This document shows, piece by piece, positions 30,386 through 44,645 of a stretch of DNA of 64,000 nt (its first letter is position 1; every line of letters starts with the position of its first letter). The notes under the pieces are model-generated. The model searched no databases. It was not told the DNA's origin and saw only the letters and a list, made by a program, of their open reading frames with translations. A program made the translations under genes and the position numbers. Origin of the DNA: Anaeromyxobacteraceae bacterium (lineage in GTDB: Bacteria; Myxococcota; Myxococcia; Myxococcales; Anaeromyxobacteraceae); contig DASTPH010000096.1 of the NCBI GenBank assembly GCA_035762305.1, positions 984 to 64,983 on the forward strand, written 5' to 3'.

Positions 30386-31120
30386 GTGAGGCGCCTGGCC
30401 GTCGCACTTCTGCTCTCCTCCGCGCTCGCTCCGCCAGTCCTAGCTCAGGCTCCCGCCACCGGGCCCGACGCTCCTCCCCAGGGCCAGGCCCCCGCAGTCG
30501 CGCCGGCCTCGCCGCCGCCGGGCTACGCTCCGGCGCAGAAGCCGCGGCGCCTGGAGCTCACCGCCTTCGCCGGCTACGAGGTCAGCTCCGACGTCACCAC
30601 CTCGACCGGAACCCTCCAGATCGACGACGCCCCGGGCTACGGCGTGGCCCTCGACTGGGCGCTGGCGCCGGGGAAGCAGCTGGAGCTCCTCTGGGTGTAC
30701 TCGACCCCCGACGTGCGCCTCAGGGGAACGGCCCCCGGCGCTCCCAGCAGCTCGTCCTTCCAGGTCGACGCGCACTACTTCCAGCTCGGCGGGCTCGCCA
30801 CCTTCGGCAAGGGGAACCTGGAGCCCTTCGCCTCCGGCTCCCTGGGCGCGGCCATGTACGTGCCGGGGACCATCGTCCTCTCCAGCGGCGCTCCGCTGTA
30901 CCCGGCGACCACTTGGCGCTTCGCCTTCTCCCTCGGCGGCGGGGTCAAGTTCTGGCTGGGCGACCGCCTCGGTCTGCGCCTGCAGGCCCGGCTCCTGGCG
31001 CCGGTGCTGTTCTCGGGCGGGGCCTTCTACTCGGGTCCCGGGGGCTCCGCCCTCACCGTGAGCGGCGGCATCCCCTACGTCCAGGGCGACTTCACCATCG
31101 GCCTGACGTTCGCGCCCTGA
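30386..31120 (+). CDS. Small outer-membrane beta-barrel protein (OmpW/porin-family like)
   Basis: GTG start. Signal peptide VRRLAVALLLSSALAPPVLAQA, Pro/Ala linker, then alternating-hydrophobic strands (ELTAFAGYEV, GYGVALDWAL, LELLWVY, RFAFSLGGGVKFW, FTIGLTF). Confidence 0.65.
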   Translation: MRRLAVALLLSSALAPPVLAQAPATGPDAPPQGQAPAVAPASPPPGYAPAQKPRRLELTAFAGYEVSSDVTTSTGTLQIDDAPGYGVALDWALAPGKQLELLWVYSTPDVRLRGTAPGAPSSSSFQVDAHYFQLGGLATFGKGNLEPFASGSLGAAMYVPGTIVLSSGAPLYPATTWRFAFSLGGGVKFWLGDRLGLRLQARLLAPVLFSGGAFYSGPGGSALTVSGGIPYVQGDFTIGLTFAP

Positions 31121-31191
31121 CCCCGAACTCGGCTGGTGACCGGGGCGCCGGCCGGGCCTACCATGTCCCGGGTCTCTCCGGAGGACGTCGC

Positions 31192-33561
31192 ATGACTGCC
31201 CACCCCCTTCCCTGCCTCCTGGCGCTGGCGCTCCTGGCGCCGCCCGCCGCCGCCCAGCAGCCCCAGCCGGCCACGGGAGCGCAGCCCGCCCCCGCGGCCC
31301 AGTCGCCGGCCGCCGGCGGCTGGCCCCAGGCCATCCAGGACGGGGACCTCACCTTCCTGGTGTACCAGCCCCAGATCGACTCCTGGGAGGGCGATAGGCT
31401 CTCCGCCCGCCAGGCGGTGGCGGTCCAGAAGGCCGGCCAGGACGCGAAGAGCTACGGGGTGGTCTGGCTCGCCGCCCGCACCGACGTGGACAAGGAGGCG
31501 GGACGGGTCCGGCTCTACGAGCTCGCCATCACCAAGGCGAGCTTCCCCGGCGACGAGAAGTCGGCGCCCGCCTGGCGCGAGGCGCTCCAGAAGAAGCTCC
31601 TCGGGGAGATGGAGATGAGCCTGGAGCGCCTGCAGATGGCGCTGGCGGTCGCCGAGGCCGAGAAGACGCGGAAGGGCGTCAAGGTCCGCAACGACCCGCC
31701 GGCGATCCTCTTCCGCGAGAAGTCGGCCATGCTGGTGTACGTGGACGGCAAGGAGGCGTTGCGGCCGCTCGAGGGCACCGGCCTGGAGCGCGTCATCAAC
31801 ACCCGCCCGCTGGTGGTGCGCGATCCGGCCTCGGGGCGCTTCTCCCTGCGCCTGCTCGACGGCTGGATGGAGGCCGAGGCGCTCGACGGTCCCTGGCGCA
31901 TCGCCCAGAGCCCGCCGGCCTCGCTGGCTGCGGCGCTCGACTGGGGGCAGAAGAACGACAAGGTGGTGGACCTGCTGGTGGCGAAGCCGGTGGAGGTGGA
32001 CCCGGCCGAGGCCGAGGGGGCCGAGAAGGTCGAGCCGCCCTCGCTGGCCAGGGGCCAGGCGCCCGAGATCGTGGTGGCCCGCAAGCCCACCGAGCTGGTG
32101 GTCACCGACGGCCCGCCCAACCTGGCGCCCATCGACAAGACCGGCCTCCTCTACTGGACCAACACCCGCTCGGACGTGCTGGTGGACACCGCCGGCGGGC
32201 AGACCTACCTCCTGCTCTCCGGGCGCTGGTTCGCCGCCCGGACCACCGCCGGCCCCTGGACCTTCGTCCCCCCCGACAAGCTGCCCAAGGACTTCGCCGC
32301 CATCCCCGACGACGGCCCCAAGGGCAACGTCCTCGCCTCGGTGGCCGGGACCCCTCAGGCCGCTGAGGCCCGGATCGCCAACTCCATCCCCCAGACCGCC
32401 ACCGTCAAGAAGAGCGAGGCCAGGTTCACCGCCAGCTACGACGGCGGTTCGCCCAAGCTCCAACCCATCGAGGGCACCTCCCTCCACTACGCCGCCAACA
32501 GCCCGACCCCGGTCATCCAGGTGACGCCCCAGAGCTGGTACGCCTGCGTCAACGGGGTGTGGTTCACGGCCGCGGGCGCGGCCGGCCCGTGGGCGGTGGC
32601 CACCAGCGTGCCGGCGGCCATCTACGCCATCCCGTCGTCGTCTTCCCTCCACTACGTGACCTACGTCAAGGTGTACGGCTCGACCGCCGAGACCGTCACC
32701 GTCGGCTACACCCCCGGTTACATGGGCACCGTGACCACGACCACCGTGGTGGTCTACGGCACCGGCTACTATTACCCGCCCTACATCGGCCCCACCGTCT
32801 GGTACGGCCCGCCGGTCACCTTCGGCTTCGGCGTCCACGTCGGCTGGAGCCCGTGGACCGGCTGGCACATGGGGTTCAGCTTCGGATTCTACGGCCCTGG
32901 CTTCTCCGTCGGCTTCGGTGTCGGCCCGTGGTGGGGGCCAATGCCCATCTACCGCCCTCCCTTCTACCCGGTGTACCGGCCGCCGTATCCCGGCTATCGG
33001 CCGCCGTACCCCGGCTACCGGCCTCCCTACGGCGGATACCCGGGCGCTCCCGGCTACCGTCCTCCGGGCGGCACCGCGCCTGCGCCGCCCCCGGGCGGCC
33101 GTCCTCCCGGCGGCACCGCCCCCGCCCCGCCGCCGGGCGGCGGCGGCCGTCCGTCCACCACCCCCTCGCGGCCGCCCTCCATCAACAGCGGCAACGTCTA
33201 CGGACAGTGGGGCGGCGCCGCCACCCGCCCGGCCACCCCCTCGACCGGCGCCCGGCCCGGGACCTTGCCGGCCGGCGGGGGAGCGCGCCCCTCGACCGGC
33301 GACGTCTACGCCGGGCGCGACGGCAACGTCTACCGCCCCTCGCAGGGCGGCGGCTGGGAGAAGCACGGCGCCGGGGGCTGGCAGAATGCGCCCAAGGCCC
33401 AGCCGCAGATGAATCGCGAGCAGTCGGCCCGGCAATGGGGCGACTACCGCGCCTCTTCCCCGTCGGCGTCTCGACCCAGCTCCCCGTCTCCCACCTCCTA
33501 CCGAGGCGGCGGCGGCGGAGGGTACCGCGGCGGCGGAGGTCGCGGCGGCGGCCGGAGGTAG
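31192..33561 (+). CDS. Secreted hypothetical protein with aromatic/Gly/Pro-rich low-complexity C-terminus
   Basis: Signal peptide MTAHPLPCLLALALLAPPAAAQ. About 560-aa globular part, then YRPPYPGYRPPYPGYRPPYGGYPGAPGYRPPGG, PPGG(R)PPGGTAPAPPPGG x2, DVYAGRDGNVYRPSQGGGWEKHGAGGWQ, and a terminal GGGGGGYRGGGGRGGGRR. Confidence 0.65.
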   Translation: MTAHPLPCLLALALLAPPAAAQQPQPATGAQPAPAAQSPAAGGWPQAIQDGDLTFLVYQPQIDSWEGDRLSARQAVAVQKAGQDAKSYGVVWLAARTDVDKEAGRVRLYELAITKASFPGDEKSAPAWREALQKKLLGEMEMSLERLQMALAVAEAEKTRKGVKVRNDPPAILFREKSAMLVYVDGKEALRPLEGTGLERVINTRPLVVRDPASGRFSLRLLDGWMEAEALDGPWRIAQSPPASLAAALDWGQKNDKVVDLLVAKPVEVDPAEAEGAEKVEPPSLARGQAPEIVVARKPTELVVTDGPPNLAPIDKTGLLYWTNTRSDVLVDTAGGQTYLLLSGRWFAARTTAGPWTFVPPDKLPKDFAAIPDDGPKGNVLASVAGTPQAAEARIANSIPQTATVKKSEARFTASYDGGSPKLQPIEGTSLHYAANSPTPVIQVTPQSWYACVNGVWFTAAGAAGPWAVATSVPAAIYAIPSSSSLHYVTYVKVYGSTAETVTVGYTPGYMGTVTTTTVVVYGTGYYYPPYIGPTVWYGPPVTFGFGVHVGWSPWTGWHMGFSFGFYGPGFSVGFGVGPWWGPMPIYRPPFYPVYRPPYPGYRPPYPGYRPPYGGYPGAPGYRPPGGTAPAPPPGGRPPGGTAPAPPPGGGGRPSTTPSRPPSINSGNVYGQWGGAATRPATPSTGARPGTLPAGGGARPSTGDVYAGRDGNVYRPSQGGGWEKHGAGGWQNAPKAQPQMNREQSARQWGDYRASSPSASRPSSPSPTSYRGGGGGGYRGGGGRGGGRR

Positions 33562-33767: not shown

Positions 33768-35477
33768 CTAATACCTCCCCTCCAGGGCGGCCAGGCCGGT
33801 CGCGCCCCAGTCGACCGAGACGGTCGAGCCCTCGCCACCCAGAGAGGGAATGGCGAACCGCGACAGGAGCGACAGCCTGAGCCGCAGCCAGGCGTTCAGG
33901 TCGAAGAGGCCGGAGAATGCGACTCCCACAGTGCTGTCCGCCGAGAGCGGCGCCGGCCGGCTGTCCATGGTGAAGGCCAGGCGGGCCATGAGGCGCGTCC
34001 CGGTGCCCGGTGCGAAGTCACCCTGGGCCCACAGGCTGCGCCCCGAGAGCCAGCCGAACTCCTCGGCGTAGCCGGCGGAGAAACCCCCCGACTTCCAGGC
34101 CTTCGGGACCAGGATCTCCGGCCCCACCCAGGAGCGCTCGTTGCCCGAGACGGCGTCGCTGGCCCAGCCGCCGAAGAGGCGCAGGGACACCGGCCCGAGC
34201 GCCTCCAGGGTGGCCGCCCCCTCGAAGTGGTCGGTCCGGCCCGGGTAGACGGCGGGCGCGGCCGGCTCGCTGGCGGGGAGATCGAAGTGCCGGTAGGAGG
34301 CGAGCAGGCTGAAGCTCCCGGCGCGGCGCCAGCCGAGGTCGGCCGCCCCGTACTCCAGGGCCCCGGTTCTCGACCCGTAGCGAAGCTGGGCCGACAGGTC
34401 CAGCTCGCGCCACAGCCAGGCCTCTCCCATGAGCTCGGCGGCGAAGCCACCGCCGGCCGGGACGCCCTCCACCACCGCCAGCCGCCCCTGATGGCGCACG
34501 ACGACGTCGGGCGAGGCGCGCTCCACGGCCCAGTAGGCGCCTCCCGTGCTCTGGTCCAGCGTCGGCTCGGTGGTGGCCGGGAGCGGCAAGAAGCCGCCGA
34601 AGAGCCCCACCTCGAGCTTTTCCGAGGGGCGCCAGCCGACCTGCGCCCCGTCGAAGACCGAGCTCCCCACCGCGCCCCAGGTCATGACCCGCCCCGCGCT
34701 CAGGGGGACGGTCACGCCGGGGTCCCGGCGCGCCACCTGGAGCTCCCGGACCAGGAGGAAGGCCTTCTGCCCCGGCTGGAAGCGCTCGGTGTCCGATTCC
34801 GCCGCGCGGTAGACGGCCTGGGCGTCCACCCAGAGCCGGAACCCCGACCCCAGCTCGGCCCCCCGAATGGTGCCGTTCACGAAGAGCTGGCTCTGGGTAC
34901 TGGCGCTCACCGAGCCCCAGAGCTGCGCCCCCAGCGACACCGCGCTCCGGAGCACCCGGTCGGCCTCGGCGGGCCGGGCGGCGGACGGGGCCCGCTCGAC
35001 GAGCGTGAACGCCGCCGCCTTCACCGCGGCCAGGCGCCGGGCCTGCTCCTCGGCGGTGGGCTGGGGCGGCAGCGCCTTCCCGGCCGCGGCCGCCGCGCCC
35101 TCGGGGAGGCGGAAGGTGTCCCCGGCCCGCAGGCCCGCGCCGGCGCAGGTGGCGCTCCGCTCCGAGATTGCCTCCACCGTGCAGCGCCCGGCCGGGCGGC
35201 CGCGCCGCACCAGGTCCACCGTCGCCCCGGCGAGGATTCCGTCGCGGCTCCCGGCGTCGAGGTAGGCGAGGCTCGCGGCCACGAAGCGGACCGAGCCGGA
35301 CGCGGCGCGGGGCCGGACCGAAACCGGGCGCAGCGGCAGCGGCGAAGTGGAGGCGGCCGGTTGCTTGAGCGGGGTTGCCGCGGCCGGGGACCGCTTCGGC
35401 TTCCCGGCGGGCTTTTGGGCGGGCGCGGCAGCCGCGGCCAGGGCCATCAGGGCGGCGGCCATCGGGACCGCGCTCAT
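33768..35477 (-). CDS. Predicted outer-membrane beta-barrel protein (porin-like partner of the multihaem cytochromes)
   Basis: Signal peptide MSAVPMAAALMALAAAAAPAQ. About 170-aa N-terminal soluble region, then about 390 aa of alternating-hydrophobic strands. C-terminal residue is aromatic (LAALEGRY). ATG overlaps the upstream stop (ATGA). Confidence 0.65.
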   Translation of the reverse strand: MSAVPMAAALMALAAAAAPAQKPAGKPKRSPAAATPLKQPAASTSPLPLRPVSVRPRAASGSVRFVAASLAYLDAGSRDGILAGATVDLVRRGRPAGRCTVEAISERSATCAGAGLRAGDTFRLPEGAAAAAGKALPPQPTAEEQARRLAAVKAAAFTLVERAPSAARPAEADRVLRSAVSLGAQLWGSVSASTQSQLFVNGTIRGAELGSGFRLWVDAQAVYRAAESDTERFQPGQKAFLLVRELQVARRDPGVTVPLSAGRVMTWGAVGSSVFDGAQVGWRPSEKLEVGLFGGFLPLPATTEPTLDQSTGGAYWAVERASPDVVVRHQGRLAVVEGVPAGGGFAAELMGEAWLWRELDLSAQLRYGSRTGALEYGAADLGWRRAGSFSLLASYRHFDLPASEPAAPAVYPGRTDHFEGAATLEALGPVSLRLFGGWASDAVSGNERSWVGPEILVPKAWKSGGFSAGYAEEFGWLSGRSLWAQGDFAPGTGTRLMARLAFTMDSRPAPLSADSTVGVAFSGLFDLNAWLRLRLSLLSRFAIPSLGGEGSTVSVDWGATGLAALEGRY

Positions 35478-36301
35478 GGCCGCCTCCCGGGCAGGGACGG
35501 CAGGCCGGGCACGGTGAGCCGTCCCGGCCGCGACGGGCCAGGCTTGCCGCCCCCGCCGCCGCTGCAGTTGGTGTGGCAGTTGGTGCAGCGGGTGGTGGTG
35601 CAGGCCGGACCGCACGCCGGCGGGTTCGGGTAGGTGAAGTGGCAGTCGCGGCAGGCGATTCCGGCGTGCTGGCCGCTGGAGATGACGAAGCAGGCGTCGT
35701 GGCCCGGGAAGAACCCGTTCTTGAAGCTCCAGGCCTGGTGGCACTCCCGGCAGTCGTGGGGGAAGCCGGCCGCGGCGTGGTCGATGGAGCCCGGACGGGA
35801 GGTCCCGAGGTAGTCGGCCTGGTGGCAGTCGTAGCAGGTGGAGATGGGGCGCGACTGGCCGCGGTTCAGCCGATCCCCGTGGCACTCCTCGCAGGGGATG
35901 AAGGCGTGCCGGCCGGTGAGCGGGAAGCCGGTCCGCCGGTGGGCGTCGGGGTCGAAGCGGGTCTGCCAGGACTCCTCGCCGTGGCAGGCGGCGCAGCGGG
36001 GGCCGAGGGTACCGCGGTGGGGGTCGCGGTGGCAGGCGCCGCACTCGCGCCCCAGCGACCGCGAGGTGTCCGCCCCGTGGCATCCCTGGCAGCCGACCCG
36101 GCGGTGCTCTCCCCGGAGCGGGAAGCCGGTGCGCTCGTGGGCGAAGGCCACGTCCTGCCAGCTCTCGGTGGAGTGGCAGCGCTCGCAGCGGCTGTCGGCG
36201 CCGGCGTGGAGCGAGGAGGGCGGCGAGGGGCGCAGGTCGGGCTCGGCAGCTGCGGCCGCCAGCGCGGCGAGCAGGGCGGCGGCGAGGGCGAGTGCGCGCA
36301 C
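35474..36301 (-). CDS. Multihaem c-type cytochrome, 9 CXXCH
   Basis: GTG start, 2 nt after the upstream stop. Signal peptide VRALALAAALLAALAAAAAE. CXXCH motifs: CERCH, CQGCH, CGACH, CAACH, CEECH, CYDCH, CRECH, CRDCH, CTNCH. Cys/Gly/Pro-rich tail. Confidence 0.85.
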   Translation of the reverse strand: MRALALAAALLAALAAAAAEPDLRPSPPSSLHAGADSRCERCHSTESWQDVAFAHERTGFPLRGEHRRVGCQGCHGADTSRSLGRECGACHRDPHRGTLGPRCAACHGEESWQTRFDPDAHRRTGFPLTGRHAFIPCEECHGDRLNRGQSRPISTCYDCHQADYLGTSRPGSIDHAAAGFPHDCRECHQAWSFKNGFFPGHDACFVISSGQHAGIACRDCHFTYPNPPACGPACTTTRCTNCHTNCSGGGGGKPGPSRPGRLTVPGLPSLPGRRP

Positions 36302-36303
36302 GG

Positions 36304-38085
36304 TCAGAACCCCTTCAGGGCGCCCTTGTGGAAGTCGGCGTGGCACCCGGCGCAGGTCTTGGGCAGGCCGCGCCAGCGCCGGACCTTCACGCCGTCCACC
36401 CTGACCTCGGCGTGGCAGGCCTCGCACTTGGCCCTGGCGTGCCGGCCGGTGAGGGCGTAGTCGGTGAAGGGGGGCTCGTGGCGGAAGCGGGCGGCCTTCC
36501 AGTCCTCGGCGCCGTGGCAGCGGCCGCAGTCGGTCCGGTCGCGAGACGAGCGGGCGAACTGGGCGCCGTGCGGGTCGGCATGGCAGGCGGCGCAGGCGCT
36601 CTCCACGCCGCCGTAGCGGGCCGCGCCGGTCCGGGTCCGGGAGTGGCAGGCGGCGCAGGCGGCCGTGAGGTGTTTCCCCTCCAGCGGGAAGCGGGTCTGC
36701 CCGTGGTCGAAGCGGGTGCGGGCGAAGGTGGTCACCTCGTGACAGCCGGCGCAGCCCTGGGGCCCGCCCTTCTTCGAGAACTCGGGGCCGTGCGGGTCGG
36801 CGTGGCAGGTCTCGCAGCGGGAGAGATCGCCGGCCACGTGGTAGACCGCCAGCGAGAGCTTCACCGGCCGGCCGCGCCGCTGAAGCTCGGCCCGGACCGC
36901 AGCCGGGAAGCGCTCGCCCACCCGCGGATCGCTCTGGTGGCAGGCCGAGCAGGCGACGGTGCGGTGCGCCCCCTCGAGCGGGTAGCGGCTCCGGGCGTGC
37001 TCCTCCGGGCCGTAGCTCACCGGCTGGTACCCGGCCAGCGAGTGGCAGCGGTCGCAGCGGCCGGCGTCGGGCCCGGAGCGCAGCATCTGGCCGCCGTGGG
37101 CGTCGGCATGGCAGTCGGAGCAGGCGGCGAAACCGAGCCCCTTCCAGAGCGGGGCCTCGGCGCCGAACGGGCCGTGGCAGGCCTTGCACTCCACCTCTGC
37201 ATGCCGCCCCTCCAGCGGGTAGCGGGTCTTCTGGTGGAAGGCGCGATCCTCGCCGGCGCGGGCCACCAGCGTCCGCCAGTCGGCGGGGGTGTGGCAGCGC
37301 TGGCAGGCAGGCCCGAACCGGCCCTGGTGCGGGTCCTTCTGGTGGCAGTCGGCGCAGGCGGCGTGGGCCACCGGCCGGTAGCGCAGGAAGTCCTTGCGGC
37401 GCGGGGCGCCCGGGCCCATCTCGGCGCCGTCCTCCAGCCGCGGGTGGCACTTGTCGCAGGCCACCCTGGCGTGCTTGCCCTGGAGCGGGTAGGCGGTGCG
37501 GGCGTGGTCGAAGCCCGGGGCCGGCTTCCAGCCCTTCTCGTCGTGGCACGTGCCGCACTCCCGTCCCAGCTGGCCGCGGTGCTCGTCGGCGTGGCAGGCC
37601 GAGCATGCCGACGGCGCCCCCAGGAACGTGGCGCGGCCCGGCTTCTTCTCGAGCCAGGCCCGGATGCCCGGGTCCGCGACCAGGGCCCGATCGTGGCACT
37701 TCTCGCAGCCCACGGGCGCGTGCTTGCCGCGCAGCGGCGTCCCGGTCCGAGCGTGGTCGAAGCGCGCCCGCCCGCCCGGCCCCCAGTCCACCAGGGCGAA
37801 GTCCCGCCCCTGGTGCTCGTGGTGGCAGGTCCAGCAGTCGCGCTCGGCGCCCGCGAGCCGCCCGTGGAGCCCGCGTCCGGCGGCCAGCGAGCCACGGAGC
37901 TCCTCGTGGCAGGCGAGGCACGACTCCTGCGCCAGCCGCCGCCCCTCGGGGTGGCAGCGGGTGCAGCTCTTCATGCCCTCCAGGGAGGCGTGCGGCTTCG
38001 CCAGCTCGCCCGGGGAGAAGAGATCCACCGCCAGGGCGGCGGGGGCGAGGGCGATGAGGCAGGCGGCGATCAGGGCGCGGGCCAA
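36304..38085 (-). CDS. Multihaem c-type cytochrome, 20 CXXCH
   Basis: TTG start with GAGGA RBS, 13 nt after the upstream stop. Signal peptide ARALIAACLIALAPAALA. 20 CXXCH by manual count, arranged as repeated F(D/R)HxxTx(F/Y)PLxGxHxxxxCxxCH modules. Confidence 0.9.
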   Translation of the reverse strand: MARALIAACLIALAPAALAVDLFSPGELAKPHASLEGMKSCTRCHPEGRRLAQESCLACHEELRGSLAAGRGLHGRLAGAERDCWTCHHEHQGRDFALVDWGPGGRARFDHARTGTPLRGKHAPVGCEKCHDRALVADPGIRAWLEKKPGRATFLGAPSACSACHADEHRGQLGRECGTCHDEKGWKPAPGFDHARTAYPLQGKHARVACDKCHPRLEDGAEMGPGAPRRKDFLRYRPVAHAACADCHQKDPHQGRFGPACQRCHTPADWRTLVARAGEDRAFHQKTRYPLEGRHAEVECKACHGPFGAEAPLWKGLGFAACSDCHADAHGGQMLRSGPDAGRCDRCHSLAGYQPVSYGPEEHARSRYPLEGAHRTVACSACHQSDPRVGERFPAAVRAELQRRGRPVKLSLAVYHVAGDLSRCETCHADPHGPEFSKKGGPQGCAGCHEVTTFARTRFDHGQTRFPLEGKHLTAACAACHSRTRTGAARYGGVESACAACHADPHGAQFARSSRDRTDCGRCHGAEDWKAARFRHEPPFTDYALTGRHARAKCEACHAEVRVDGVKVRRWRGLPKTCAGCHADFHKGALKGF

Positions 38086-38098
38086 GGGTCCTCGAGGT

Positions 38099-40315
38099 TC
38101 AGTCGAGCAGGATGAGGCCGTAGCCGAGCCACAGCGAGACGCCGATGTGGGCGGCGATGGCCAGGACCAGGAAGACGGCCAGCGAGGCGTGGAAGATGCG
38201 CCAGCCGCGCATGAGCGACTTCAGCGAGCGCGAGAGCGCGATCTGCAGCCGGAGCTGCTCCAGCCGGTGCATGTCGGCGGCGAACTCGGCGAAGGCGGCC
38301 CGGCTGGGGAAGGCCCGGGCGGCGCGGCGCAGGGCGCGCCAGGAGGCGAGCGACTGCAGCGGCAGGTGCACCAGCGAGCCCACCATCGAGCGCGGCGGCA
38401 ACGGCGCCGTCACCGCCTCGAAGAGGCGGCGCAGCGGGGCCGGGTCCGTGGCCTGGGCCAGGAGCGGCTCGACCTCGGCGCGGGCTCGCACGAAGGACCC
38501 CTGCAGGTCCTCCACCTCCAGGGCCTTGCCGCCCGAGGACGGGATCAGCCCGTAGATGAAGCGCCCCACCACGCCGGTCGCCACCACCACCCCGAGGGCG
38601 GAAGCGGTGGCGGTGGCGAGCAGGTTCTTCGACTGGAAGGCGGCGTGGAAGGCGATGACCAGCGGGCTCATGAAGCCCACGAAGACGTGGAAGAGCAGCC
38701 ACAGCCGGATGTCCCCCAGGCCGGAGAGGAGCGGCACCCGCTTGCGCGCCGCGTAGAGGAAGTTCGAGAGCATGAAGGCGGTGGCGGCGATGCCCACCCC
38801 GTGCCCGAAGGGGCCGGCCGACTTCAGCGAGGCGTGCAGGGAGAGGCGCAGCCGCTCCCGCCACGGGGTCAGGTAGTAATCCCAGCCGCGCCAGGCCAGG
38901 AACGCCAGCAGCGCCGCCCCCAGCGCCGCGTAGAGGACCGACAGGCGCCGCTCGCGCGCCCGCTGGGCTCGCTCCCGCGCCTCGGCGTGGCCAGCGCTGG
39001 AACGCGCCCCGCGGGCCTCGCCGAAGTAGCGCCGCATGGAGACGCCGGCCTTCTGGAGCAGCTCGGCCGGGGCCTCGCCGCCCACGCTCACCAGCACGAA
39101 GTCGTTGTCGAGGCGGAGCGGCCGGCCGGCCATCTCCAGATCCACCTCGTGGGCTTCGATGCCGCGCACCTGGGAGCTGGGGAGCAGCCGCAGCCTCCCG
39201 GCCTGGCCCAGGGCGGCGGCGCGCTGACGGTTCGGGGCCCGGCAGGAGGGGTCGGGCTTGCGGTAGGAGAGGACCACCTGGGCGTCGGTCTCCTCGGCGA
39301 GCTGGCAGGCGGCCTCCACCCCCGAGTCGCCGCCGCCCACCACCAGCACCCGGGTGCCCCGGTACTGCTGCGGCTCGTCGAGGTCGTAGACCACCTTGGC
39401 CCGGTCCTCGCCCGGAACCCCCAGCTTGCGGGGAGTGCCGCGCCGCCCCACCGCCAGCACCACCTGCCTCGCCGGCACCGGCCCTTGCGCGGTGAGGACC
39501 GTGAAGTCGCCCTCCTGCCCCTCGACGCCCGTGACCCGCATCCCCTGCTCCACCGCCAGGCCCGCCTTGTCCACCATGCGCCGGAAGGCGGCGGTGAGCT
39601 CCTCCTTGGAGATGCGCCGCTTCCCGAAGCGCCCGTAGAAGGGAAGCGTCACCGTCTCGGTCATCACCACCTTGCCGCGGGGGTAGTGGGCCACCGCGCC
39701 GCCGAGGACGTCCTGCTCCAGCAGGCGGAAGCCGATGCCGCGGGCCCGCGCCCCCAGGGCCGTGGCCAGCCCGGCCGGGCCGGCGCCCACGATGGCCACC
39801 TCGGCCTGTCCCGGCCGGACCGGCCCGCGGCGCTCCGCCAGGTGCTCCGCCACCTCCAGCCCCTGGCGGAGGGCGTTCTTGATGAGCCCCATGCCGCCCA
39901 ACTCGCCCACCACGAAGACGCCGGGCCGAGACGACTCGAAGACCTCGGAGAGCTCGGGCAGCTCCAGGCCGCGCCGGGCGGTACCGAACACCAGCTGGAT
40001 GGCGCCCACCGGGCACTCGGCGGCGCAGCGCCCGTGGCCGATGCAGTTCTCGCCGTGCACCAGGGTGGCGGTCCCGTGGACCATCCCCAGGATGTCGCCC
40101 TCCGGGCAGACCTTCACGCAGGAGAGGCTACCGATGCAGACGTCCGGGTCGATGACCGGGTGGAGCGAGCGGGGGAGGTTCCGCTCCTCCCCGGCCCGCC
40201 CGAGGGCCTCGGAGGCGGCGGCGGCGCGGCGCGCCCGGTGCAGGGCGTAGATCCCCGCCATGACGACCGCGGCGCCGACCGCCACCGCCGGGAACACGAT
40301 CTGCGAGAGATCCAC
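38099..40315 (-). CDS. Membrane-anchored fusion protein with FeS, flavin and putative haem-b domains
   Basis: Domain order: N-terminal TM helix, two ferredoxin-like motifs, FAD/NAD(P)-dependent oxidoreductase, C-terminal multi-TM domain with twin H-x13-H helices. N-terminal TM followed by HRARR. CIGSLSCVKVCP and CIGHGRCAAECP. Two dinucleotide folds VAIVGAGPAGLA and VLVVGGGDSGVE. C-terminal TM helices LLFHVFVGFMSPLVIAFHAAF and IFHASLAVFLVLAIAAHIG. Confidence 0.8.
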   Translation of the reverse strand: MDLSQIVFPAVAVGAAVVMAGIYALHRARRAAAASEALGRAGEERNLPRSLHPVIDPDVCIGSLSCVKVCPEGDILGMVHGTATLVHGENCIGHGRCAAECPVGAIQLVFGTARRGLELPELSEVFESSRPGVFVVGELGGMGLIKNALRQGLEVAEHLAERRGPVRPGQAEVAIVGAGPAGLATALGARARGIGFRLLEQDVLGGAVAHYPRGKVVMTETVTLPFYGRFGKRRISKEELTAAFRRMVDKAGLAVEQGMRVTGVEGQEGDFTVLTAQGPVPARQVVLAVGRRGTPRKLGVPGEDRAKVVYDLDEPQQYRGTRVLVVGGGDSGVEAACQLAEETDAQVVLSYRKPDPSCRAPNRQRAAALGQAGRLRLLPSSQVRGIEAHEVDLEMAGRPLRLDNDFVLVSVGGEAPAELLQKAGVSMRRYFGEARGARSSAGHAEARERAQRARERRLSVLYAALGAALLAFLAWRGWDYYLTPWRERLRLSLHASLKSAGPFGHGVGIAATAFMLSNFLYAARKRVPLLSGLGDIRLWLLFHVFVGFMSPLVIAFHAAFQSKNLLATATASALGVVVATGVVGRFIYGLIPSSGGKALEVEDLQGSFVRARAEVEPLLAQATDPAPLRRLFEAVTAPLPPRSMVGSLVHLPLQSLASWRALRRAARAFPSRAAFAEFAADMHRLEQLRLQIALSRSLKSLMRGWRIFHASLAVFLVLAIAAHIGVSLWLGYGLILLD

Positions 40316-40487
40316 CTGTCGACCACCCGAGGTGGGATTGTCCGGCCGCGGGATGTGGTAGGGCTTTGTCCCCGGTCAATCGGTGGGGAGCCCCGTAGGG
40401 GGCGTCACAGCGGCAGCCAGTTCCCGTGATTCCCCGGCGGCACATGCCGCCGCTGTGAGTCGAGGTCCGGGGCCTGCGGCGCCTCGA

Positions 40488-40512
40488 GCGGGGGGAGAGA
40501 CTCTCCCCCCGC
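40488..40512. repeat. 25-bp perfect palindrome downstream of the ABC ATPase gene and upstream of the cytochrome operon
   Basis: gcggggggagag-a-ctctccccccgc, 12 bp per arm around a single central base. Confidence 0.7.
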
Positions 40513-40551
40513 ACCCCCCATCTCGAGCGTCACTCCAAGTGGCAGGCGGAA

Positions 40552-41232
40552 TCAAAGCTCCTGGATCCCGCCGTCCTGCATCCGCATGCGGCGTCCGGCG
40601 CGGCCGGCCAGCTCGGAGTTGTGGGTCACCATGACGAAGGTCGTGCCCCGCTCCCGGTTCATCCTCATGAAGAGCTCCATCACCTCGGCCTCGGTCTGCT
40701 CGTCGAGGTCGCCGGTGGGCTCGTCGGCCAGCACCAGCGACGGCGCGTTCATGAAGGCGCGGGCGATGGCCACGCGCCGCTGCTGGCCGCCGGAGAGCTG
40801 CGACGGGTAGGCGCCGGCCCGGTCGCCGAGCCCGACCAGCCGGAGCAGCTCCACGGCCCGGGTCTCGGCCCCGTTGAGCGGACCGGCCCGGGGGCGGAGC
40901 GTCACCGGCAGGAGCACGTTCTCCCTGGCCGTCAGGACCGGGAGCAGGCTGGCGAACTGGAAGACGAACCCCACGTGATCGCGCCGGAAGGCGGTGAGCC
41001 GATCGCCGTCCAGGGCGTAGAGGTCGGCGCCGTCCACCAGGACCCGGCCCGACGAGGGCCTGGCCATGCCGCCCAGGATCGAGAGCAGCGTGGTCTTGCC
41101 GGAGCCGGAGTGGCCGACGATGGAGACGAAGTCGCCGCGCTCGACGGTGAACGAGACGTCCTTCACCGCCTCGGGGCGGTCCCCGCCGGCCGCGAAGCGC
41201 TTCTCCACTCGCTCCACCACCAGGTGCGGCAC
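40552..41232 (-). CDS. ABC transporter ATP-binding protein (MacB/LolD-type)
   Basis: Walker A GHSGSGKTTLLS, signature LSGGQQRRVAIARA, Walker B LVLADEPTGDLD. Confidence 0.9.
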   Translation of the reverse strand: MPHLVVERVEKRFAAGGDRPEAVKDVSFTVERGDFVSIVGHSGSGKTTLLSILGGMARPSSGRVLVDGADLYALDGDRLTAFRRDHVGFVFQFASLLPVLTARENVLLPVTLRPRAGPLNGAETRAVELLRLVGLGDRAGAYPSQLSGGQQRRVAIARAFMNAPSLVLADEPTGDLDEQTEAEVMELFMRMNRERGTTFVMVTHNSELAGRAGRRMRMQDGGIQEL

Positions 41233-41233
41233 C

Positions 41234-42430
41234 CTACTCCTCCTTCAGCACCATGAACGGCTCGATGCGCCCGGCGCGGCGGATGGGCAGGAGCGCGCCC
41301 AGCACGCACACGCCGGTGCCGACGAGCAGGCCCACCGCCGCGATGGTGGCGCGCTCTCCTCCGCCGAGGTCGGCGGTGACGCTCCGGAGGATGGCGAATC
41401 CCCGCGCCGGCACGAGCGAGAGGGCGGTCCCGAAGAGGACCCCCAGGGCGCTGCCGAGCCCCCCCACCATCACCACCTCGGTGAGGAAGAGCCGGATCAC
41501 GTGGGACTCGGTGGCCCCGATGGCCCGCAGGATCCCCACCTCGCGGGCCCGCTCGTTGGCGACCCCGGAGAAGACCGCCCAGGCCAGGCAGGCGGCCATG
41601 AGCGAGGCCACGGCGATGAAGGCCGCGAAGACCCGGCGGATGTCGCCCAGGGCGCCGAGGACGCTCTTGCCCACGTCCCGCCGCGCCACCGCGTCCACCT
41701 CGACGATGGAGTCGTCGATGCGGCCGGCCACCACCTGGGGATCGACGCCCGGCTCGACCCTGGCGAAGATGACCGAGACCTGGCCCTCGGCGACCCGGGG
41801 CTTGCCCTTGCGGATGAGGTCCTGGACGTTGCTCCGGTCCACGAACACGGCGGTGTCGAGCCCGGTGCCGGTCTTCTCGAGAACCCCCACCATCCTGAAG
41901 ACGTTGCCGAACAGGACCGCGTCCACGTCGGTGAGGCCCAGGCCGATGTTGAGCGCCGACTCGCTCCCCACCAGGGCCTCCCCGTGGCCCAGGTTCCGAT
42001 GGAGCGCCCGGCCGAGCCAGGGCTTCACCACGAAGTCGGTTTCCTGGTCGAACGCGACCACCATGGTGTCTGGCACGTCGCAGCAGGCTCCGCCCAGGGT
42101 GACCAGATAGGTCTGGGCGGTGACCCGCTCGATCCCGGGCACGGCCCGGACCCGTTCGACCAGGCCCCCCTCCATGTAGAAGCCCTTGACCCGGTGGTCG
42201 ATGAGCACGTCCTCGGCCGAGCCCCGGGAGCCGGTGGGCACCACCAGGACGTCGGCGCCGAGCCGGTCGGCGGTCTTGCGGATGCTCGACTCGACCCGGC
42301 GGACGAAGGACAGCCCGAACACCAACGACGAGACCAGGAGGCCGATGGCCGCGACCAGGATGGCGGCCCGCGCCGGACGTCGCGCCAGGTTCTTGAGGGC
42401 GTGCCTGGAGAGGCCGAAGGCCTTGGGCAT
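41234..42430 (-). CDS. ABC transporter permease (FtsX/MacB-type with large periplasmic domain)
   Basis: TM1, about 220-aa periplasmic domain, then 3 TM helices. FtsX-type REVGILRAIGAT. CC pair (GGACCDVPD) in the periplasmic domain. Confidence 0.85.
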   Translation of the reverse strand: MPKAFGLSRHALKNLARRPARAAILVAAIGLLVSSLVFGLSFVRRVESSIRKTADRLGADVLVVPTGSRGSAEDVLIDHRVKGFYMEGGLVERVRAVPGIERVTAQTYLVTLGGACCDVPDTMVVAFDQETDFVVKPWLGRALHRNLGHGEALVGSESALNIGLGLTDVDAVLFGNVFRMVGVLEKTGTGLDTAVFVDRSNVQDLIRKGKPRVAEGQVSVIFARVEPGVDPQVVAGRIDDSIVEVDAVARRDVGKSVLGALGDIRRVFAAFIAVASLMAACLAWAVFSGVANERAREVGILRAIGATESHVIRLFLTEVVMVGGLGSALGVLFGTALSLVPARGFAILRSVTADLGGGERATIAAVGLLVGTGVCVLGALLPIRRAGRIEPFMVLKEE

Positions 42431-42497: not shown

Positions 42498-43646
42498 CTA
42501 CTTGCCGAAGTTGGCGGCGAGGCCGCAGAGGATGGCGTTCTTGTCGCCCTTCCCCATGTCCTTGTGGCAGCCGAAGCACACCGAGGCGGTCTTGCCCACC
42601 AGCTTCTTGGCCCCGACGTCGTAGAGCGCCAGGGTGCCGTCGGTGATCTTCTTGTCGGGCGTGGGCTTGCCCTCGGGGTCGCACCCCTGGGTGTCGGCGG
42701 TGCGCAGCGTCAGCAGCGCGTACTTCCCGTCCGGGGTGGGCTGCACGTCGTGGTTCTCGCCCAGGGCCGGCTTGGTCATCTTCTCGTCCACCATCTTCAG
42801 CGTCTTGGCGTCGATGACCCACATCCGGTCGGCTGCCGACTGGAAGATGAGCTTGTCGTCCCGGCTGAAGTACTGCCGGAAGGTGATGGTCTTCCCCGGC
42901 TCACCGGCCAGGGTGTTCTCGGCCAGCTTCTTGAACTTGCCCTTCTCGAGCGCCGGGAGGTCGAGCATGACGAACGCCTGCTTGCCGTTCATGTTGCCGT
43001 CCTCGCCCTTCAGGCTCAGCGCCACGACGAACTTCTTCAGATCATTGGAGTTGGTGCCGTGCAGGAACTGGTAGGAGCCGGGCTTGAAGCCGAGGTCGCT
43101 GATGAACATCCGCCTCTCGTGCTTCATGGTCTTCTTGTCGAAGACGTCGATGTACCCCTCGGTCCCCATGAACACCGGCATGAAGGCGTTCTTGCTCTGG
43201 CCCGAGGCGCAGTAGACCGGGCCGGTCTTGGCGGGGGACCTGGCATCGGGCGTCAGCGCCACGTCCTTCACCACCTCGCCGGTCTTCAAGTTGGTCTTGC
43301 CCACGTGCATCTTGCCCTCCTTGTCGAGGGCGTAGGTGGACCAGAAGAGGGTGTTCGCGTCGGTGGCGTCGAGGCGCGCGTCGTGGGTCTTGTGGCTCTC
43401 GGTGGTGCCGATGGCCACCATCTCGAGGTTGTTGACGGTGACGGGCTGGTCGGCGTTGGACGGGTCGACGGTCACCTGCGCCTTGGAGAAGTGGCCGCCG
43501 TGGCCGGCCACGTAGACGGTGGCGGCGTAGGTGCCCGACTTGGCGGGCGCGGCCGGAGGCGCCTTGGCCGAGGCCACCGGCGCGACGAGGTAGGCGAGAA
43601 GGGCGAGCGCGACTGCTGGGGCGAAAACGGCGAGTGTCTTCTTCAT
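42498..43646 (-). CDS. Secreted Lys-rich protein, probable beta-propeller, with a single C-terminal CXXCH haem-c motif
   Basis: RBS GGGAG 8 nt before ATG 43646. Signal peptide MKKTLAVFAPAVALALLAYLVAPVASA. His clusters AGHGGHF, ESHKTHD, FLHGTN, ENHDV. C-terminal CFGCHKDMGKGD. Confidence 0.7.
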   Translation of the reverse strand: MKKTLAVFAPAVALALLAYLVAPVASAKAPPAAPAKSGTYAATVYVAGHGGHFSKAQVTVDPSNADQPVTVNNLEMVAIGTTESHKTHDARLDATDANTLFWSTYALDKEGKMHVGKTNLKTGEVVKDVALTPDARSPAKTGPVYCASGQSKNAFMPVFMGTEGYIDVFDKKTMKHERRMFISDLGFKPGSYQFLHGTNSNDLKKFVVALSLKGEDGNMNGKQAFVMLDLPALEKGKFKKLAENTLAGEPGKTITFRQYFSRDDKLIFQSAADRMWVIDAKTLKMVDEKMTKPALGENHDVQPTPDGKYALLTLRTADTQGCDPEGKPTPDKKITDGTLALYDVGAKKLVGKTASVCFGCHKDMGKGDKNAILCGLAANFGK

Positions 43647-43765
43647 CACTGAGCTCCCTGAGTGGGGTGTGTGGCGTACTTCACTTTTGGTGAGTGGTGT
43701 GCGGTACCGGCCTTCGTCCCCCTCCCCTGGTCCAGCGCTTCCGCCTCCTTTCCGCGGCTCGTCCG

Positions 43766-44236
43766 CTATCCGGCGATCCTGACCGAGGTGACCTTCTCGC
43801 CCGCCCTCTCGAAGGCCAGGCGGAGGGTGAACTCGTATCCCTGGCCGACCTCCCCGGGGAGGCCGAACACCATCACGTGCAGCCCGCCCGGCCTGAGCTC
43901 CACGGCGCCCCGGGCCGGGATCCGGACCCGCTGCTGCTTCACCATCTTGCCGTCGACCACCCCGTGCAGCTCGGCCACCGCCCCGGGGATGCCCACCGTG
44001 GCGCCGAGCAGGGAGTCGTCGCCGCTCCCCGCGTTCTCGATCCGCATGAAGATCGAGCAGGTCCGGAGCAGGACCGGCGAGAGACGCGCCTCCTGCCCGG
44101 CGATGGCGATGCTCGGCGACCCGGAGCAGGCGGCCGCGCCCAGGGCCAGGAGCGCCAGGCGCCGCGGGGCGGACTTCCAGCCCGCCCGGCCGGATTCCCG
44201 GCGGGCCTGCCTCGACACGCCGGCGCCATCGGTCAT
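43766..44236 (-). CDS. Copper chaperone PCu(A)C (DUF461) lipoprotein
   Basis: Lipobox LALGAAAC. IENAGSGDDSLLGATV...AELHGVV...MVKQQRV..IPARGAVELRPGGLHVMVFGL matches the PCuAC H/M copper-site pattern. An alternative start at ATG 44275 is possible. Confidence 0.8.
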   Translation of the reverse strand: MTDGAGVSRQARRESGRAGWKSAPRRLALLALGAAACSGSPSIAIAGQEARLSPVLLRTCSIFMRIENAGSGDDSLLGATVGIPGAVAELHGVVDGKMVKQQRVRIPARGAVELRPGGLHVMVFGLPGEVGQGYEFTLRLAFERAGEKVTSVRIAG

Positions 44237-44645
44237 CGCGACCACGAACCGCTTTCCCGGGACCCTGGCTCCCACGAGCGGCCCCCGCCGCCGTGTGCCG
44301 GCCCTGCGCCATCGCGTCGACCGCGCGAACGGCTGCGATTCATGCGTTTCAGCTACGCGAAACGCGGTGGGAGCGTCAACGCGAAGAAGCCTGATAGGGC
44401 GAACAACGAAGCTGATATGGGCCGGAAGGAGCGTTTTCGTCCCTCGGGACGCGTACCTCGCCCCGCCGGCTCGCTCGCCTCATCCAGGCGCCGGGGCGCG
44501 GCGCGGAGCCGCGGCGTGCGGCTCGGCCCGGAGTTGGCGCGCTGCACCGCGGCGAGCGGCGCCCGCCTCCACGAGCGGCCTCACCTCACGGCGCCGCCAG
44601 GATCTCGACGGCGCAGGAGCTCTCCACCGGCAGCGAAGGCCCGGG

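Follow-up and report, generated by a model that had tools for sequence, protein, structure and literature searches.

A candidate envelope-spanning electron conduit with its own NAD(P)H input module in an Anaeromyxobacteraceae bacterium

A 64,000-nt stretch of the genome of an Anaeromyxobacteraceae bacterium (Myxococcota; assembly GCA_035762305.1, contig DASTPH010000096.1, positions 984 to 64,983; hereafter the window) contains four adjoining minus-strand genes, here called a, b, c and d. In this order they encode an inner-membrane fusion of a ferredoxin domain, a flavoprotein and a multi-helix membrane domain, a cytochrome with 20 CXXCH haem-binding motifs, a second cytochrome with nine, and a protein modelled as an outer-membrane beta-barrel. 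We consider it rather probable that this operon is a self-contained electron conduit that spans the cell envelope and possesses its own cytoplasmic NAD(P)H input. The idea of a trans-envelope conduit had been raised in a preliminary description of this DNA, and it is supported as far as sequence analysis reaches.

The genes are separated by a 13-nt gap (a/b) and a 2-nt gap (b/c), or overlap by 4 nt in an ATGA (c/d), and the open reading frames (ORFs) and translations that we re-derived agree in every detail with the near-contiguous arrangement described before. Upstream, 236 nt separate gene a from an ABC-ATPase gene, and the neighbour downstream of gene d is convergent; because the upstream gap bears a hairpin and the downstream gene runs in the opposite direction, genes a-d look like a single transcription unit. 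The hairpin is a perfect inverted repeat (GGGGGGAGAG/TCTCTCCCCCC, ~40490-40510), located ~40 nt past the stop codon of the ABC-ATPase gene and lacking a T-run, and it may be a terminator stem that isolates the ABC-ATPase gene from the operon. A promoter scan upstream of a found no sigma-70 consensus, a result that carries little weight for Myxococcota.

Domain architecture of protein a

Protein a (Table 1) has a 100% identical counterpart at NCBI, from a metagenome-assembled genome of the Anaeromyxobacteraceae, and its full-length homologues are abundant (54-89% identity). Its N-terminal membrane helix has no Lys or Arg before it and the sequence HRARR directly after it, is devoid of a twin-arginine (Tat) motif, and is retained in those homologues whose membrane domain is encoded by a separate gene (split homologues); a further Arg-rich segment precedes the next membrane helix. 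Since Arg/Lys-rich segments thus stand beside the helices, and neither a Tat nor a Sec signal is present, the iron-sulfur/flavin module is predicted to be cytoplasmic and not periplasmic.

The ferredoxin domain carries two cluster motifs, C59-x2-S62-x2-C65-x3-C69-P and C90-x2-H93-x2-C96-x3-C100-P, and across 40 homologues the six cysteines of these motifs, as well as Ser62 and His93, do not vary. In both motifs the second ligand position is occupied by a residue other than Cys (CxxSxxCxxxCP and CxxHxxCxxxCP), with Ser62 and His93 invariant in the clade of fused proteins; in the split homologues the first motif has its Cys back and the second still has His. These Ser and His ligand positions suggest that a [4Fe-4S] cluster with a His ligand, or else a [3Fe-4S] cluster, stands at the point where electrons enter or leave.

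The flavoprotein comprises two dinucleotide-binding folds of the type found in YpdA and in thioredoxin reductase (TrxR)-like ferredoxin-NADP reductases (FNRs). Residues 172-428 match Pfam Pyr_redox_3 (E = 2e-37), the PDB matches are 7a76/7a7b (Bdr/YpdA), 2zbw and the FNRs 6gar/3lzw, and in a Foldseek search with the whole AlphaFold2 (AF2) model of a, the flavoprotein part alone was matched. A flavin adenine dinucleotide (FAD) motif (GxGxxG, residues 176-181) and an NAD(P)H motif (GGGDSG, residues 326-331), the latter followed by S349-Y-R351...R358, consist of invariant residues. In E. coli TrxR, the HRRxxxR segment binds the 2'-phosphate; the S-Y-R...R residues after GGGDSG parallel this segment, which argues for a preference for NADPH, and NADPH is probably the cofactor of a. 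We rejected a role in thiol-disulfide reduction, because neither the redox-active CxxC of TrxR nor the active Cys14 of YpdA is present: the position of the YpdA-type GGGPCG reads GAGPAG, and the score with the NCBIfam YpdA model, 132 bits, stays below its cut-off of 340. The flavoprotein appears better described as being of the TrxR-like FNR type. An invariant sequence at residues ~127-147 (39875-39937), GVFVVGELGGMGLIKNA, is similar to the 'GD' motif with which TrxR-like enzymes bind FAD at their C-terminus and stands in a ahead of the first GxGxxG motif, a position that suggests a circular permutation putting the ferredoxin domain beside the flavin.

The C-terminal part of a is a membrane domain of five helices, of which helix 3 carries W538-x3-H542-x13-H556, helix 5 carries W704-x3-H708-x13-H722 and helix 4 carries T579-G-x-x-G583-R, with a cytoplasmic insert of ~115 aa between helices 4 and 5. 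All four of these His residues, as well as Trp538, Trp704 and the TGxxG motif, are invariant across 40 fused and 18 mixed homologues. Helices 3 and 5 are parallel, so that His542 and His708 would lie near the cytoplasmic face and His556 and His722 near the periplasmic face, which is the geometry expected of a transmembrane pair of b haems. When 18 members of the family were compared with Pfam, sub-threshold matches were obtained to DUF4405 (14/18, best E = 1e-5), Ferric_reduct (11/18 at E <= 1, best E = 1e-4) and Ni_hydr_CYTB (8/18, best E = 3e-4); the membrane domain of the window itself scored 12.4 bits (E = 0.17) with Ferric_reduct (PF01794), short of the gathering score of 28 bits. The preliminary description had read a as an NAD(P)H/iron-sulfur protein with transmembrane His residues, and this reading is strengthened by the arrangement of the four invariant His as two HX13H pairs and by the weak matches to three di-haem b families.

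In more distant genomes, the membrane domain exists as a protein in its own right, of ~300 aa. A search with this domain only, among 1.84 billion representative proteins, matched 1753 representatives at E <= 1e-3, of which 650 remained at E <= 1e-10. Many of the matched proteins are stand-alone, with a length of 285-310 aa; they share 28-37% identity and retain the invariant residues. We sampled nine stand-alone genomic contexts. In those designated L083/84, L086, L087, L089, L092 and L093, a separate gene encodes a ~440-aa protein composed of the N-terminal helix, the ferredoxin domain and the flavoprotein, which is 40-45% identical to a and lies adjacent to the membrane gene or in the same operon; these split clusters hold homologues of b and c, and L087 also a homologue of d (hhalign probability 97%). 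In L090, a non-homologous [2Fe-2S] reductase (FAD_binding_6/NAD_binding_1/Fer2) ends 1 base before the membrane gene, which is followed by a gene for a 45-haem, 1139-aa cytochrome; homology of the last gene of this context to d was not established (hhalign probability 16%). A [2Fe-2S] ferredoxin abuts the membrane gene in the same position in L088, and L091 has no such redox gene nearby. Multihaem cytochromes are encoded nearby in all nine contexts (9/9).

The partner of the membrane domain is therefore fused to it in one lineage, adjacent to it in others and analogously replaced elsewhere. Taken together, fusion, adjacency and replacement form the strongest available argument that this partner is a cytoplasmic, NAD(P)H-oxidising one-electron donor, and they indicate such a donor. 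They also lend weight to the earlier claim that the cluster has its own cytoplasmic NAD(P)H input, as the flavoprotein stays adjacent even when the fusion is split, and L090 swaps in an unrelated NAD(P)H/FAD/[2Fe-2S] reductase.

Cytochromes, barrel and conserved gene order

The N-termini of b, c and d are signal-peptide-like and end in Ala-X-Ala. Inspection of these N-terminal sequences revealed no usable lipobox in b, c or d (the IAAC at residues 6-9 of b lies too near the N-terminus), in agreement with the earlier statement that both cytochromes lack one. From its Cys and His content, b would be expected to contain ~0.2 CXXCH motifs by chance, as compared with the 20 observed. It is built of c7/c3-like tri-haem modules (Pfam Cytochrome_C7 five times, Cytochrom_c3_2, and MtrC/MtrF domain II/IV), weakly matches HmcA in a family search (E = 3e-11), and is 33-37% identical to the cytochrome that comes first in the split clusters; a sequence search of b against solved structures found nothing. 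We propose that b, with its 20 haems, would be long enough to span the periplasm, by analogy with the 21-27-haem PCC3 cytochrome, for which the same argument has been made (PMC10734462).

Protein c matches the DmsE/MtrA family weakly (E = 5e-4), and the TIGR03508 model scores 19.6 bits with c and 37.9 bits with b, against a cut-off of 192 bits. In an alignment, c shows nine haem motifs versus 10 in nearly all of its homologues: in place of the tenth, C-terminal CXXCH (35474-35570), c has a tail rich in Gly and Pro, GGGGGKPGPSRPGRLTVPGLPSLPGRRP, and the other frames hold no trace of the motif. Either the motif was lost by truncation in this lineage, or it is missing through an assembly error that escaped detection. 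We propose c as the segment inserted in the barrel. In several Myxococcota genomes (L054, L067, L068, L016, L075 and L078), the 20- and 10-haem cytochromes are fused as single 30-haem proteins.

Protein d had no Pfam or NCBIfam match at E <= 0.1 and no PDB sequence match, and none of the 34 homologues found has a Pfam domain. Its AF2 model consists of a small N-terminal beta domain, presumably periplasmic, then a helix, and then a barrel of 22 DSSP strands with short loops on both faces (mean predicted local distance difference test score (pLDDT) 77, about 85-93 in the barrel, where block values are mostly 80-94). The N-terminal domain is conserved out to the split cluster L087. Since d falls into no known family and its structural neighbours in Foldseek are all outer-membrane barrels, it is best modelled as a secreted outer-membrane barrel of ~22 strands belonging to a new sequence family. 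The protein had been described before as a signal-peptide protein with beta-strand periodicity and a C-terminal aromatic residue; the modelled barrel accords with this, and its 22 strands lie well beyond a 16-strand limit.

To place the cluster among its relatives, we scanned one genome per species for the membrane-domain pattern, which yielded 111 genomes, and examined the loci of the best 80 of these 111. With two separate contigs, one of them already among the scan loci, these make up 82 related loci. The best 80 genomes all belong to the Myxococcota, including Anaeromyxobacteraceae, Myxococcus and Archangium. Of the 82 loci, 62 share the order a-b-c-(optional third cytochrome)-d, so that the four genes are indeed co-conserved. 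In the majority of these complete loci (41/62) there are two cytochromes, as in the window, and in 16/62 a third cytochrome, often with a lipobox, stands between c and d; b has 20 haems and c has 10 in almost all loci. The cluster of Anaeromyxobacter dehalogenans 2CP-C, for example, comprises five genes (ABC82437 to ABC82433), encoding in order the fusion protein, the 20-haem, the 10-haem and a 9-haem cytochrome (c2, with the lipobox LALAC), and the barrel. We considered whether the third cytochrome is missing from the window through a deletion or frameshift artefact, and rejected this, as no remnant was found in any frame and 41/62 complete loci are of the four-gene form; being the form of the majority, it is a normal variant and not an assembly defect.

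Table 1. Features of the operon and of the proteins it encodes (positions in the window)
Feature	Position	Strand	Description	Basis
Gene a	38099-40315	minus	738 aa, GTG start; inner-membrane fusion, proposed input module	ORF listing and translation
a, N-terminal membrane helix (residues 6-25)	40241-40300	minus	N-terminus out, C-terminus in	Hydropathy and charge count
a, ferredoxin domain (residues 52-110)	39986-40162	minus	Two clusters	Pfam Fer4_10, E = 5e-11
a, flavoprotein (residues ~127-430)	39026-39937	minus	Two dinucleotide-binding folds (TrxR-like FNR/YpdA type)	
a, five-helix membrane domain (residues 455-738)	38102-38953	minus	Putative di-haem cytochrome b	AF2 helices and topology
Gene b	36304-38085	minus	593 aa, TTG start; 20 CXXCH	ORF listing and translation
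Gene c	35474-36301	minus	275 aa, GTG start; 9 CXXCH	ORF listing and translation
Gene d	33768-35477	minus	569 aa, ATG start; no Cys-rich motifs, C-terminus EGRY	ORF listing and translation
d, small N-terminal beta domain (residues 59-122)	35112-35303	minus	Conserved Cys98/Cys110 pair	AF2 model and conserved columns
d, beta-barrel (residues 177-567)	33777-34949	minus	~22 strands, C-terminal aromatic residue	AF2 model
Intergenic region upstream of a	40316-40551	minus	236 nt; probable operon promoter region	Sequence read

Relation to known electron conduits

The closest likeness is to PCC3 and PCC4, porin-cytochrome clusters that have been predicted in Proteobacteria, Fe(II) oxidisers among them (He et al. 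2017, PMC5566968; Hoover et al. 2023, PMC10734462). Their inner membrane protein has five helices, with WX3HX13H on transmembrane helices 3 and 5 and (S/T)GXXG on transmembrane helix 4, and has been likened to the ferric-reductase domain (PMC5566968); by this published description, the signature of a matches it point for point. The same study suggested that this protein exchanges electrons with quinones, and lists clusters in which a cytochrome and the inner membrane protein are accompanied by an unnamed 'another redox protein' of 412-805 aa (PMC5566968). The likeness extends to a periplasmic cytochrome of ~20-27 haems (median 21 in PCC3, 20 in b) encoded beside the membrane protein, to the outer-membrane barrel (the Leptothrix PCC3 porin is predicted to have 22 transmembrane regions, and the model of d has 22 strands), and to 'other redox proteins' nearby, PCC4 having an iron-sulfur gene upstream of the membrane protein.

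What the cluster of the window adds to the PCC3-type set is the fused NAD(P)H flavo-iron-sulfur input: unlike in PCC3 and PCC4, the membrane protein forms a single polypeptide in a with the ferredoxin domain and the TrxR-like flavoprotein, and the partner so indicated is NAD(P)H and not quinol. PCC3 furthermore has an extracellular cytochrome of 10-85 haems, whereas the window has none (nor does PCC4), and the hosts are Myxococcota as compared with Proteobacteria. Thus, of the non-canonical architecture claimed in the preliminary description, the NAD(P)H flavo-iron-sulfur input is supported, but the arrangement as a whole is not wholly unprecedented, PCC3 and PCC4 having been predicted in 2017.

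With the NADPH oxidases (NOX), the ferric reductases Fre of yeast and FRO of plants, STEAP and MsrQ, protein a would share cytoplasmic NAD(P)H, a flavin, two stacked b haems on helices 3 and 5 with identical HX13H spacing, and an acceptor at the outer face. It differs from the ferric-reductase superfamily in its five rather than six helices and in its proposed acceptor, a chain of multihaem cytochromes and not O2, Fe(III) or MsrP. The dehydrogenase of a is moreover N-terminal and TrxR-like, with a ferredoxin domain interposed, whereas that of NOX is C-terminal and of the FNR type; a partial likeness to NOX in this respect is seen in L090, where the membrane protein is paired with an FNR-type reductase encoded by a separate gene. 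Because the Pfam scores fall below threshold, membership of a in the ferric-reductase superfamily is unproven.

MtrCAB, MtoAB, PioAB and the Geobacter OmaB-OmbB-OmcB system resemble the cluster in combining within one operon a barrel, a ~10-haem cytochrome and, as in the relatives of the window cluster, a lipoprotein cytochrome, and the weak matches of b and c to the DmsE/MtrA family and to MtrC domains point the same way. However, d lacks the MtrB_PioB signature (PF11854) and has ~22 as compared with 26 strands, and the inner-membrane partner is a flavo-iron-sulfur-cytochrome b protein and not a quinol-oxidising NapC/NirT, ImcH or CbcL. Since that signature is absent from d and the TIGR03508 scores of b and c fall far short of the cut-off, the cluster is not a member of the Mtr/Pio/Mto group. 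Geobacter Pcc (GSU2737-2739), compared by haem counts, differs in having an 8-haem periplasmic and a 12-haem lipoprotein cytochrome versus 20 and nine haems in the window. Two published systems were considered and rejected as counterparts: the Anaeromyxobacter Pcc cluster (Shi et al. 2014), which is a two-gene Adeh_3392 locus with a 12-haem cytochrome and thus a different locus, and the 16/26-haem beta-propeller operon (Skennerton et al. 2017), whose gene content differs. Hmc and Tmc also link periplasmic multihaem c cytochromes, via a membrane cytochrome b, to a cytoplasmic iron-sulfur protein with no obligatory quinone step, but their electrons flow inward to HdrD-like proteins, they have neither an NAD(P)H flavoprotein nor an outer-membrane barrel, and their subunits are unrelated.

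Electron path, alternative readings and flanking genes

In the path that we propose, NAD(P)H, probably NADPH, would reduce the FAD of the TrxR-like domain of a on the cytoplasmic side, and electrons would then pass singly through the two fused iron-sulfur clusters to an inner haem b (His542/His708) and across the membrane to an outer haem b (His556/His722), following the logic of NADPH oxidases and ferric reductases. From there they would enter the 20-haem protein b, which at ~9-10 Å per haem could bridge the periplasm, and proceed to the 9/10-haem protein c, in or at the ~22-strand barrel d. The final step would lead to an extracellular or surface acceptor, in relatives with a third cytochrome first via the extra lipoprotein cytochrome. 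The gene order, the domains, the invariant ligand residues, the barrel fold and the co-conservation of fused and split forms come directly from the analysis; the cofactor content, the protein-protein contacts, the outward direction, the quinone independence and the acceptor are all features that we infer. Outward flow is favoured because the redox gradient and the inside-negative membrane potential both point outward. Export of electrons from NAD(P)H would consume membrane potential, and the conduit therefore likely serves the disposal of excess reductant, the release of Fe(III), Mn(IV) or humics by reductive mobilisation, or the reduction of extracellular O2; a part in classical energy-conserving respiration is less likely. 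The cluster also occurs in Myxococcaceae and Archangiaceae that are aerobic predators, which fits such a non-respiratory role.

Several observations weigh against this path. All matches of the membrane domain of a to di-haem families in Pfam fall below the curated thresholds, and a profile of this domain compared with all PDB sequences gave nothing meaningful (E >= 0.69) and no solved homologue. The AF2 model of a is moderately confident (pLDDT 73.6, predicted template modelling score 0.43), and we infer the binding of haem b by a from motifs only. The Foldseek neighbours of d are generic outer-membrane barrels only (MOMP, AlgE, Occ porins and FimD/PapC; TM-score <= 0.47), none of the cytochromes of the window cluster is a lipoprotein or clearly extracellular, and c has lost its tenth haem motif. 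Finally, full-length a paralogues of ~745 aa exist as orphans without adjacent cytochrome or barrel genes (L008, L024 and L064), some of them in genomes that also hold a complete cluster. Protein a therefore does not need b, c and d, and this input module may serve other periplasmic acceptors too.

Three other readings of the cluster were weighed. It is unlikely, in our judgement, that the five-helix di-haem b domain acts as a quinol dehydrogenase or quinone reductase, the flavoprotein then being NDH-2-like and electrons travelling via menaquinone. This is what He et al. (2017, PMC5566968) proposed for a membrane protein of the same signature, a proposal that likewise counts against direct transfer, and it accords with the weak matches of some homologues to Ni_hydr_CYTB, among whose members are cytochromes b that react with quinones, as well as with the flavoprotein of a belonging to the same broad superfamily as NDH-2. 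However, a two-cluster ferredoxin domain is universally kept between the flavin and the membrane domain, where a one-electron wire would be superfluous for quinone reduction, and the partners in L090 and L088 are an FNR/[2Fe-2S] reductase and a [2Fe-2S] ferredoxin, typical protein-to-protein donors. The fusion in a single polypeptide also favours direct transfer, and no quinone-site motif was identified, although no rigorous search was made for one. A purely periplasmic system has a similarly small chance of being correct: here a would feed periplasmic cytochromes that act on a soluble substrate, as an electron store or in detoxification, and d would be an ordinary co-transcribed porin or exporter. 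In the window, neither b nor c is a lipoprotein or plainly exposed at the surface, the UniRef label of the A. dehalogenans homologue of d is 'Alginate export domain-containing' and AlgE and porins are among the Foldseek matches, orphan a genes occur, and porin-less clusters of a cytochrome, a membrane protein of this kind and a redox protein are known (He et al. Suppl. Table 6; L093). Set against this, the barrel accompanies the cytochromes in most loci, with the N-terminal domain of d kept even in split clusters, and the modelled barrel has short loops and lacks a plug-like insert; about a third of the relatives add a third, often lipobox-bearing cytochrome between c and d (such as c2 of A. 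dehalogenans), and the 30-haem b-c fusions exceed the width of the periplasm.

Inward flow, with electrons from Fe(II), minerals, humics, cathodes or partner cells reducing NAD(P)+ or ferredoxin, is quite improbable. TrxR-like FNRs are reversible enzymes. Mtr-type conduits are described as reversible (PMC10734462); moreover, PCC3 and PCC4 clusters with the same membrane-protein signature occur in Fe(II)-oxidising bacteria, and uptake through PCC3 has been proposed in iron oxidisers. But the reduction of NAD(P)+ (~-320 mV) by Fe(II) or humic donors is uphill, electrons moving inward would oppose the inside-negative potential, the cluster encodes no energy coupler such as a proton pump or bifurcating partner, and the hosts are heterotrophic Myxococcota and not lithoautotrophs.

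To our knowledge, all characterised Gram-negative pathways of extracellular electron transfer draw on the quinol pool via CymA, ImcH, CbcL or CbcBA, and a search of the open-access literature found no paper on a link between an NAD(P)H flavoprotein and a porin-cytochrome cluster. The outward conduit proposed here might, with a chance that we put at just under even, amount to a quinone-independent NAD(P)H:extracellular-acceptor oxidoreductase, a two-membrane counterpart of NOX and the ferric reductases with a 30-haem wire through an outer-membrane barrel. An input wired straight to NAD(P)H would differ in kind from the quinol-fed ones: it would not conserve energy and would be assisted by the membrane potential, and would thus suit redox balancing or reductive nutrient mobilisation. 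Because the membrane module is widespread (1753 clusters; fused, split or partner-swapped) and occurs in aerobic predators, it could be a general route of extracellular reduction, hitherto unrecognised and non-respiratory, with iron and manganese mobilisation, humic reduction and enzymatic production of extracellular superoxide as candidate roles. It would also give a function to the 'HX13H inner membrane protein' of the PCC3 and PCC4 clusters, which now serve as marker genes of iron oxidation. A. dehalogenans 2CP-C (ABC82433-ABC82437) offers a culturable host for these predictions, and a compact four- or five-gene module leading from NAD(P)H to the exterior would be attractive for bioelectrochemical engineering.

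Two genes in the surroundings of the operon stand out. Upstream, a gene at 42498-43649 (minus strand) encodes a 383-aa, Lys-rich secreted protein whose last residues are CFGCH and which matched nothing in Pfam, NCBIfam or PDB. The gene sits in a stretch of lower G+C (0.68 as compared with ~73% in the window), and is flanked by a PCuAC copper-chaperone gene (43766-44275, minus strand) and a gene of a MacB/FtsX-type ABC transporter (40552-42430, minus strand). Its product may bind haem or copper and may have been gained by horizontal transfer. On the other side, convergent with gene d, lies an ORF of 882 aa (30913-33561, plus strand) with a long low-complexity tail rich in Pro, Gly and Tyr (YRPPYPGYRPP...) and no family match.

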